Origin: Gammaproteobacteria bacterium
GTDB lineage: Bacteria > Pseudomonadota > Gammaproteobacteria > GCA-001735895
Direction of reading: 5' to 3'
NCBI GenBank assembly: GCA_050295575.1
Contig: JBNKPX010000004.1
Span: 609-64,608 of the forward strand
Length of the DNA stretch: 64,000 nt
The stretch's first letter is position 1. Each line of letters begins with the position of its first letter. Positions 38,171-38,417 of the stretch are shown piece after piece. The notes below the pieces were generated by a model, which was given only the letters and a program-made list of their open reading frames with translations, made no database searches and was not told where the DNA came from. The translations under genes were made by a program, and so were the position numbers.

Positions 38171-38247
38171 CGGGGCGTAGCGCAGCCTGGTAGCGTACCT
38201 GCATGGGGTGCAGGTGGTCGGAGGTTCAAATCCTCTCGCCCCGACCA
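38171..38247 (+). tRNA. tRNA-Pro (GGG)
   Basis: Hand-folded: acceptor CGGGGCG/CGCCCCG, anticodon loop ATGGGGT, T arm GGAGG-TTCAAAT-CCTCT, encoded ACCA. Confidence 0.95.
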
Positions 38248-38250
38248 TTT

Positions 38251-38417
38251 TTAAACTCTCGTTATTGTAGAAGTCTCGTTGTAGATCGAAGCATAGGCGA
38301 GAGGTTTTGAACCGATAGAGGTTCATAAAATCGCCGGGAGCGATTTTAAACAGCCACAGGCTGGCCCGAAGGGCGGAGGGCAGGAGCCCGCAGTAAATCC
38401 TCTCGCCCCGACCATTT
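38251..38417 (+). other. Structured element flanked by a 23-bp repeat of the tRNA-Pro 3' end (homologue of the tRNA-Val element)
   Basis: aaatcctctcgccccgaccattt occurs at 38228-38250 and at 38395-38417. Hairpins lie at 38309-38324, 38327-38347, 38351-38363, 38364-38374 and 38378-38389. Confidence 0.5.

Follow-up and report, generated by a model that had tools for sequence, protein, structure and literature searches.

Two tRNA-linked repeats with a conserved four-hairpin core downstream of tRNA-Pro and tRNA-Val in a gammaproteobacterial contig

Locus and architecture of the elements

The stretch of DNA analysed here, referred to as the window, comprises 64,000 nucleotides (64 kb) of contig JBNKPX010000004.1 (assembly GCA_050295575.1) of a gammaproteobacterium. 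Within it, the genes for tRNA-Val(GAC) and tRNA-Pro(GGG) flank the block thrS-infC-rpmI-rplT-pheST-ihfA together with a merR-family gene, and each of the two tRNA genes is followed directly, in the same orientation, by a structured element that ends in a copy of the tRNA 3′ end. We are nearly certain that both elements are tRNA-linked repeats (TLRs), as distant members of that family; the element at tRNA-Pro is no new kind and belongs to the TLRs of Escherichia coli (TLR, RtT and RrA, RrB, RrF). The explanation that we find best and, on balance, probable is that the element is transcribed together with the tRNA as a structured RNA with a tRNA 3′ processing signal at its end, and that this RNA probably binds CsrA.

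The window holds exactly two copies of the 23-nt sequence AAATCCTCTCGCCCCGACCATTT, at the very positions given by the initial annotation, and no third was found in the 64 kb even when three mismatches were allowed, with a chance expectation of 0. Given the extent of the tRNA-Pro gene (Table 1), the repeat begins in the T-loop and ends 3 nt past the CCA. The insert between the two copies (38251–38394) measures 144 nt, and the initial annotation had placed in it a four-hairpin core next to the distal repeat and an extra hairpin, both of which were recovered in the minimum free energy (MFE) structure. For the RNA 38290–38417, this structure has an outer stem of 9 bp that encloses five hairpins and leaves the 3′ tail, CCGACCAUUU, unpaired; its folding energy is −56.9 kcal/mol (z = −5.3), and none of 200 shuffled sequences was as stable. 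The outer stem corresponds to the proposed pairing of ggcgagagg with the repeated tRNA end, although the paired segment lies at 38296–38304 and not at 38297–38305. The multi-helix junction closed by the upstream strand and the repeated tRNA 3′ end was likewise borne out, and the Rfam RtT consensus shows the same outer stem and ...CCA tail. GGA motifs are found in the H1 loop (CGGGA), between H3 and H4, and in the H4 loop (AGGA), and the E. coli RtT segment homologous to the pseudo-T-arm hairpin of the Pro element is GGATGAGAAgCTTCGACCAAGGTTCGA.

The core motif is present at only two sites in the window, the Pro element and a site after tRNA-Val (30737–30763), in agreement with the two structured, tRNA-linked copies described initially. 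At the Val site the repeat is 20 nt long (30637–30656 and 30768–30787), and a promoter-like site is located upstream of the tRNA gene at 30535–30562. Between tRNA and TLR, a terminator scan at the window copies found no terminator-like site. In effect, the Val repeat is longer than 20 nt (30649–30673 and 30780–30799): after each copy comes a similar hairpin, cctacca-(a)at(t)atattt(tt)-tggtag, in which downstream sequence pairs with the tRNA 3′ end.

Table 1. Features of the two window elements and of related sites in other loci. Positions without a locus number refer to the window; L numbers denote loci collected from other genomes, and R1 is the covariance model described in the text.
Feature	Position	Strand	Evidence or remark
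tRNA-Val(GAC), host of the sister copy	30579–30655	+	ARAGORN
Sister TLR at tRNA-Val	30656–30787	+	R1, 72.3 bits; fold; directly downstream of tRNA-Val, same orientation
Val left arm, GAGTTGG-TGAGAAC	30676–30689	+	
Val T-loop half, GTTCGA	30692–30697	+	
Val H1	30698–30720	+	
Val H2	30724–30734	+	
Val H3	30736–30746	+	
Val H4	30750–30762	+	
Val distal 20-nt repeat	30768–30787	+	
tRNA-Pro(GGG), intact host gene	38171–38247	+	ARAGORN; Rfam tRNA, 59.4 bits
Proximal 23-nt repeat copy (T-loop A58 to CCA, plus TTT)	38228–38250	+	Exact match
Spacer from tRNA-Pro to TLR	38251–38295	+	Terminator scan: none
Left arm GGCGAGAGG forming the 5′ strand of the outer stem; complement of tRNA positions 61–69	38296–38304	+	MFE fold
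Pseudo-T-arm hairpin UGAACC-GAUAGA-GGUUCA; its end, the T-loop half GGTTCA, adjoins the core	38308–38325	+	MFE fold
H1, 9-bp stem, loop CGGGA (GGA motif)	38326–38348	+	9 of 9 pairs covary, 104 copies
H2, variable in length and sequence	38351–38363	+	MFE fold
H3, GCCC-GAA-GGGC	38364–38374	+	Outermost pair covaries
H4, GGGC-AGGA-GCCC, GGA motif in loop	38378–38389	+	MFE fold; loop GGA in 94 of 104 copies
Distal 23-nt copy of tRNA 3′ end, then tail CCGACCAUUU	38395–38417	+	Exact match; fold
3′ strand of outer stem, CCUCUCGCC	38399–38407	+	Pairs with GGCGAGAGG at 38296–38304
Core inserted in D-loop of partial tRNA-Ser copy	L002, 3935–3790	−	
Core inserted in D-loop of partial tRNA-Ser copy	L023, 6634–6760	+	
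Core inserted in D-loop of partial tRNA-Ser copy	L114, 4238–4130	−	
Pro site of sister genomes, intact	L121, L123		
Pro site of sister genomes, tandem expansion	L126		
Pro site of sister genomes, truncated after aaaatcgccg	~3830 in L122, L124, L128, L130		
Pro site of sister genome, same tRNA-Pro, TLR absent	L129		
Val site of sister genomes, internally deleted, diverged distal repeat attccactcacgcatacca	~1560–1640 in L136–L138, L140		

Relationship to the tRNA-linked repeats of E. coli

TLRs have been known since 1978 and are poorly understood; in E. coli they were reportedly described by Egan and Landy in 1978 and by Rudd in 1999, and the class was first noticed behind tyrT (RtT RNA) and behind the 5S rRNA of rrnA, rrnB and rrnD (small RNAs RrA, RrB and RrF). 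E. coli K-12 carries 22 TLRs at ten loci, all of them behind tRNA or 5S genes, and their hallmark is that the last 18–19 bp at the 3′ end repeat, without mismatch, the 3′ end of the preceding tRNA or rRNA (PMC8144298). In the window, this identity extends over 23 of 23 nt at the Pro element and 20 of 20 nt at the Val element. A TLR consists, in this order, of a spacer, a left arm directed against the 3′ strand of the T-stem and acceptor stem of its own tRNA, the T-loop half GGTTC(G)A, the four-hairpin core of about 65 nt, and the tRNA copy from position 58 to the CCA. When the tyrT and rrnB regions of E. coli K-12 were read directly, the order of their modules matched that of the window copies: a left arm able to pair with the stable RNA along its 3′ strand, the pseudo-T-loop (G)ATGAGAAC, GGTTCGA, hairpins H1 to H4, ..TAA and the copied 3′ end.

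Scanning at the Rfam gathering thresholds returned only tRNAs and no RtT. With a permissive E-value, the RtT family (RF00391) matched both window copies over its full length (model positions 1–130), at 27.6 bits (E = 0.0011) for Pro and 20.9 bits (E = 0.047) for Val, both under the gathering threshold of 45 bits; the tyrT repeats of E. coli score 133–137 bits with the same model. This failure to reach the threshold says little about membership of the TLRs, since the RtT model also misses E. coli rrB, which matched neither RtT nor any other Rfam family (Rfam 15) at E ≤ 0.1. Rfam covers the tyrT subtype only, and the general TLR core is without a curated RNA family. Training of a covariance model, R1, used 45 copies, none of them from the window or among the four judged to be enterobacterial. 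Its scores are 77 bits for the Pro element, 72 bits for the Val element, 69 bits for the rrB core in the E. coli rrnB T1–T2 region (L131, 331–419) and 12–27 bits for the tyrT repeats. The window core is nearer to the rrA, rrB and rrF type. A blastn search with the Pro TLR in distant mode against 5,426 E. coli genomes gave no match, and the kinship of the window TLRs to those of E. coli is visible to profile or structure models alone.

Regarding the left arm, the tRNA-linked TLRs share a conserved motif, (G)ATGAGAAC, which was seen in the window at 30681–30689, in the E. coli tyrT repeats (L001) and in L113, L117, L029, L021 and L025, and which, two fixed changes apart, looks like the reverse complement of the T-loop (ATTCGAAC). 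The motif is degenerate in the Pro copy (TTTTGAAC). A hammerhead reading of this motif, as (G)AUGAGAAC, was discarded as a superficial likeness that lacks stem II, and a self-cleaving ribozyme was likewise rejected: the sole ribozyme match in Rfam was to Pistol, at the level of noise (15 bits, E = 1.3).

Distribution, covariation and loop conservation of the core

A core-motif scan of one genome per species yielded at least 119 loci, about half of which are clear relatives. Among the matches listed, the relatives belong mostly to Gammaproteobacteria, including Methylococcales, Xanthomonadales/Rhodanobacteraceae, Rheinheimera, Arsukibacterium, Halothiobacillus, Endozoicomonas, SAR92 and Enterobacterales, with Bdellovibrio and one Verrucomicrobiota metagenome-assembled genome as outliers. 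Viral contigs gave 16 pattern matches and two weak partial model matches, with no convincing copy. The search with R1 collected 104 copies in 73 sources. The initial annotation had also considered that the core might be a scattered repeat without any tie to tRNA genes; both window copies are tRNA-linked, but 59 of the 104 copies elsewhere lie outside a tRNA context, which in part bears out that possibility for other lineages. Copies of the latter kind run in the same direction as the upstream open reading frame (ORF) in 22 cases and in the opposite direction in 13, ORF calls being crude in GC-rich DNA. In 28 tRNA-linked units, which follow genes for tRNA-Ser, Arg, Val, Gln, Pro, Tyr and Glu, the core occupies the T-loop position. 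The left arms of these 28 TLRs fit their cognate tRNA with a mean longest match of 5.9 nt, compared with 4.6 nt for other tRNAs (p = 0.001), and arm complementarity does not exceed 7 nt in 18 of them.

The stems of the core covary strongly in the alignment of the 104 copies, which was fitted to the model; the stems of H1 and H2 and the outermost pair of H3 were not set by the search motif. Cells of the alignment that should pair do so in 95.9% of cases, as opposed to 77.3% after shuffling, and double-sided changes number 283 where 77 are expected. Covariation was observed for 15 of 17 pairs, including all nine of H1, and none of 500 shuffles reached the observed values; with shifted partners as a control, pairing falls to 29–53%. 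For example, the outermost pair of H3 appears as GC in 32 copies, CG in 24, GU in 19 and AU in 4, and the H2 segments fold at −6.5 kcal/mol against −1.7 kcal/mol when shuffled. Since stem mismatches of the G.U type exceed those of the A.C type (43 and 20, binomial p = 0.003), the tRNA-sense strand, that is, RNA, is favoured as the one that folds. The loops are conserved within stems that vary: GGA is present in the H1 loop of 94 of the 104 copies (CGGGA, CUGGA, CAGGA and similar) and in the H4 loop of 94 of 104 (AGGAA, AGGA, AGGAUA and similar), counts that are somewhat inflated because the collection motif and the model contain the loop consensus. As sequence motifs, the H1 and H4 loops match the A(N)GGA-in-a-loop signature of CsrA sites.

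Insertion contexts of the core

Beyond its position in classical TLRs, the core was found in a range of other settings. A full-length tRNA-Val copy in L104 (485–330, minus strand) carries the core in its T-loop, and some 40 nt downstream of this copy comes an intact tRNA-Val, itself followed by a TLR. In three further loci (Table 1) the core interrupts, after GGYTGA, the D-loop of partial tRNA-Ser copies situated just upstream of an intact tRNA-Ser, and in L023 the duplication extends to the promoter-proximal leader. The core stands at the centre of palindromes in L072, L081, L059, L074, L088 and L008, and no uninterrupted versions of the palindromes flanking non-tRNA copies were found among the collected loci. 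Head-to-tail arrays of the bare core, with a period of about 63–80 nt and devoid of tRNA parts, occur mainly in Methylococcaceae (L010, L052, L060, L110, L097, L042). The two bases before H1 are G in 80 of 99 copies and A in 95 of 99.

The sister genome GCA_050306135.1 (L126, 3891–4232) has the Pro TLR as a tandem duplicate. Its second unit contains a clean 69-nt core in reverse orientation between GAGGT and TCA, which is missing from its first unit, from the window and from L121, so that filled and empty sites can be compared directly. On its own strand the junction of this insert reads TGA|CAAAA...CACCC|ACCTC, with no target duplication. A further complete core in this second unit, another difference from those three copies, sits inside the host core's H3 loop (CCCCGA^A). 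A metagenome scan with the H1 of the reverse insert gave six matches, five of which resemble chance palindromes; in the sixth (L164), core-like sequence follows the match and a separate weak R1 match of 25 bits is located nearby.

These contexts suggest a core that is still mobile, or was so until recently, and that prefers GA^A in loops. We tentatively propose, as a possible rather than a probable reading, that the core of about 65–70 nt represents a widespread, undescribed, non-autonomous mobile module of Gammaproteobacteria that inserts after GA in hairpin loops without target duplication. Its sites would then include the T- and D-loops of tRNA copies, the 3′ part of 5S genes and palindromes, as well as the H3 loop and the tail of the core itself, and the classical TLRs might be the remains of hits on a tRNA 3′ part that had been duplicated. 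A TLR, seen as DNA, most likely came about when the core entered after the GA in the T-loop of such a duplicated 3′ part, with tandem duplication and decay to follow, and the GGA loops could represent a later or concurrent exaptation for CsrA binding. Because all target sites are loops of abundant folded RNAs, insertion at the level of RNA or single-strand DNA is possible, and single-strand DNA, RNA-mediated insertion and recombination are all candidate routes; no mobilising enzyme or transposase partner of the core was identified.

Proposed function

In E. coli, the rrn terminators T1 and T2 enclose the 5S-linked TLRs rrA, rrB and rrF, all of which are transcribed by read-through and processed; in vitro, their RNAs use GGA motifs to bind both Hfq and CsrA, and the binding of RrB to CsrA is abolished by GGA mutation (Stenum et al. 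2021, PMC8144298). RrB is made by terminator read-through and processed beside the repeat, for which its authors propose a role in 3′-end processing (PMC8144298). Legionella CsrA likewise recognises A(N)GGA (PMC5338858). By analogy, readthrough from the tRNA promoter would transcribe the window TLRs, as the lack of a terminator between tRNA and element suggests; the copied tRNA 3′ end and the outer stem would give a defined, tRNA-like 3′ processing site, as at RrB; and the GGA loops of H1 and H4, plus the single-stranded GGA, would bind a CsrA family regulator, an expectation based on the conservation of the motif. The availability of CsrA could thereby be coupled to stable-RNA transcription. 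This mechanism, which combines co-transcription, a 3′ processing site and CsrA binding tied to stable-RNA synthesis, appears to us quite possible while falling short of probable.

Several observations weigh against a functional CsrA-binding RNA, among them the inflation of the GGA counts mentioned above. No csrA gene lies within the 64-kb window, and the Val fold beats its shuffles only modestly (z = −2.2). In E. coli, deletion or overexpression of rrA, rrB and rrF has only modest phenotypes, and the algorithm used in the same study rated the 19 TLRs of tRNA operons as non-binders of CsrA (PMC8144298). Sister genomes, defined as loci that encode an identical IhfA (Pro site) or, through rplT, an identical L20 protein (Val site), point in the same direction: next to intact or tandemly expanded elements, the Pro TLR is truncated at four loci and absent from one that has the same tRNA-Pro, and the Val TLR is internally deleted at four (Table 1). 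As sister genomes carry damaged or missing copies, the TLR is dispensable, and selection on it is weak at best. Two other loci, L125 and L127 (~3950–4080), have a different tRNA-Pro without a TLR, after which a 32-nt unit, aatcttaagataatcgcatgtaaacgagcgct, occurs two to three times in tandem.

The initial annotation had emphasised that the two elements bracket the thrS–ihfA block. Both tRNAs do flank the block, but the bracketing is probably incidental, since TLRs follow many kinds of tRNA genes and 5S genes across many genomes.

Alternative explanations

The most serious competitor holds that the core is a selfish, non-autonomous element, similar to MITE, REP or PATE elements, whose RNA has no cellular role; it would land in hairpin loops, and a TLR would be no more than one such insertion in a duplicated fragment of a tRNA 3′ end. 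The occurrence of the same core with the same ends in T-loops, D-loops, the full-length tRNA-Val copy, split palindromes, arrays and nested positions speaks for it, as do the clean filled and empty pair in L126 (unit 2 against three other copies without the insert), the prevalence of G and A before H1, and the presence/absence variation and decay among sister genomes. Such an element does not predict the conservation of GGA in two loops across distant lineages or the strand-specific G.U bias, nor does it fit the E. coli RrB RNA, which is expressed, processed and bound by CsrA; moreover, neither a transposase or other partner nor a convincing copy in viral contigs was identified. We therefore consider a core without any cellular role somewhat unlikely. 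The selfish explanation accounts well for origin and decay; it concerns origin more than present function, and it can be true together with the co-transcribed, probably CsrA-binding TLR that we prefer.

That TLR ends in an exact copy of tRNA positions 58–76, and its outer stem continues the T-stem and acceptor strand, features that could also be taken to make the outer stem and the ...CCGACCA tail a decoy or sensor for RNase P, the CCA-adding enzyme, ProRS or EF-Tu. The better fit of the left arm to the cognate tRNA (5.9 against 4.6 nt, p = 0.001) agrees with such mimicry, and a role of the repeat in 3′-end processing has been proposed (PMC8144298). Yet the stem has only 9 bp, the last three acceptor pairs are missing, the T-loop is broken by 70 nt and the arm complementarity is limited to 7 nt or less in 18 of 28 tRNA-linked copies. 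The resemblance to an acceptor stem raised by the initial annotation did not hold, as the overhang before the final UUU measures 7 nt where a tRNA has 4, and mimicry directed at aminoacylation or EF-Tu is unsupported. Because 5S-linked and non-tRNA copies share the core, its role is independent of tRNA mimicry. A tRNA mimic in the full sense is improbable in our view, and the repeat remains plausible as a processing signal. Attachment (att) sites in tRNA genes typically show direct repeats that run from the T-loop to the tRNA 3′ end, which is exactly the span of the 23-nt repeat, and the gene content after tRNA-Pro differs among sister genomes, so that the two copies might be read as attL and attR of a mostly deleted island. 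Such a relic is very improbable and was rejected on three grounds: only 144 nt separate the copies; the same covarying core is found at unrelated sites (tRNA-Val, seven kinds of tRNA elsewhere and behind 5S rRNA); and it forms arrays. No third copy exists in the 64 kb, and the ORFs annotated beside the Pro copy (ten window ORFs were annotated) encode a glycosyltransferase and a Ser/Thr kinase and no integrase.

Neighbouring genes and variation among sister genomes

Comparison of the region 38450–42300 with L121–L130 indicated that the gene content directly after tRNA-Pro varies among close relatives. The variants include an AraC/DJ-1 gene, an asparagine synthase with a glycosyltransferase, a glycosyltransferase alone, or the Ser/Thr kinase directly, and by this comparison of sequences the region downstream of tRNA-Pro appears as a recombination hot spot. 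The glycosyltransferase of the window (38677–39741) best matches, below the cut-off, those of PEP-CTERM/XrtA systems. On the Val side, the window carries about 577 nt of extra DNA (29956–30530) relative to the sisters L136–L140, between a Pyr_redox gene and tRNA-Val. An ORF in this extra DNA (30167–30379, plus strand) encodes 70 amino acids with a signal peptide and a C-terminal tail composed of VPEPS, a hydrophobic segment and RYLKSRR, which resembles a PEP-CTERM sorting signal. Farther upstream, a gene at 7009–8985 (plus strand) encodes a 658-residue ankyrin-repeat protein similar, below the cut-offs, to the Legionella Dot/Icm effectors AnkG, AnkH and AnkY; about 90 residues at its own C-terminus match the sigma-70-like N-terminus of MzaA, and this protein hints at a Legionellales-like intracellular host of the element.

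Comparison with known systems

That TLRs occur in an apparently Legionellales-like genome, as they do in many other Gammaproteobacteria, shows the family to be old and widespread, and the wide gammaproteobacterial spread of the core and its insertion contexts look undescribed so far. The covarying stems and the two conserved GGA loops provide comparative support for CsrA binding by TLR RNAs, and the insertion patterns (T-loops, D-loops, palindromes, arrays and nesting) offer a testable hypothesis for the origin of TLRs. The window element itself is an ordinary member of the family; the distribution and insertion behaviour of the core are more interesting. The rrnB T1–T2 region, which bears the rrB TLR core, is present in thousands of cloning vectors.

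When compared to other short repeats, the TLR core resembles REP/REPIN sequences and the IS200/IS605-derived PATEs in being short, hairpin-rich and present in many copies in some genomes, and in inserting next to a short target without target duplication. It differs in its strand-specific loop conservation and its preference for stable-RNA genes, and no RAYT or TnpA partner was identified. With tRNA attachment sites the elements share direct repeats of the tRNA 3′ part that begin in the T-loop, whereas the window insert has only 144 nt, no integrase is found among the nearby genes examined, and the core is common to 5S-linked and non-tRNA copies. If the functional reading is right, the elements would resemble CsrB, RsmY and RsmZ in presenting several GGA motifs in hairpin loops. 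In contrast to those RNAs, to which they show no sequence homology, the window element has two or three GGA sites only, and it would be co-transcribed with a tRNA instead of having a GacA/LetA-type promoter.

The closest relatives are the E. coli elements. Like RrA, RrB and RrF, the window copies closely follow a stable-RNA gene and share its orientation, copy its 3′ end (18–19 nt in E. coli, 20 and 23 nt in the window) and have a core of four hairpins, of which H1 and H4 bear GGA in the loop. They carry a tRNA 3′ end where the 5S-linked elements copy that of 5S, and no T1/T2 pair surrounds them, whereas RrA, RrB and RrF lie within the T1/T2 dual terminator. Their host also appears to be Legionellales-like and AT-rich, while conservation of the E. 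coli TLRs was reported only within Enterobacteriales (PMC8144298). With RtT (RF00391) the window elements have in common the module order, the outer stem, the left arm, the half T-loop GGTTCGA and the ...CCA tail; the tyrT repeats have lost the GGA loops of H1 and H4, which the window copies keep.

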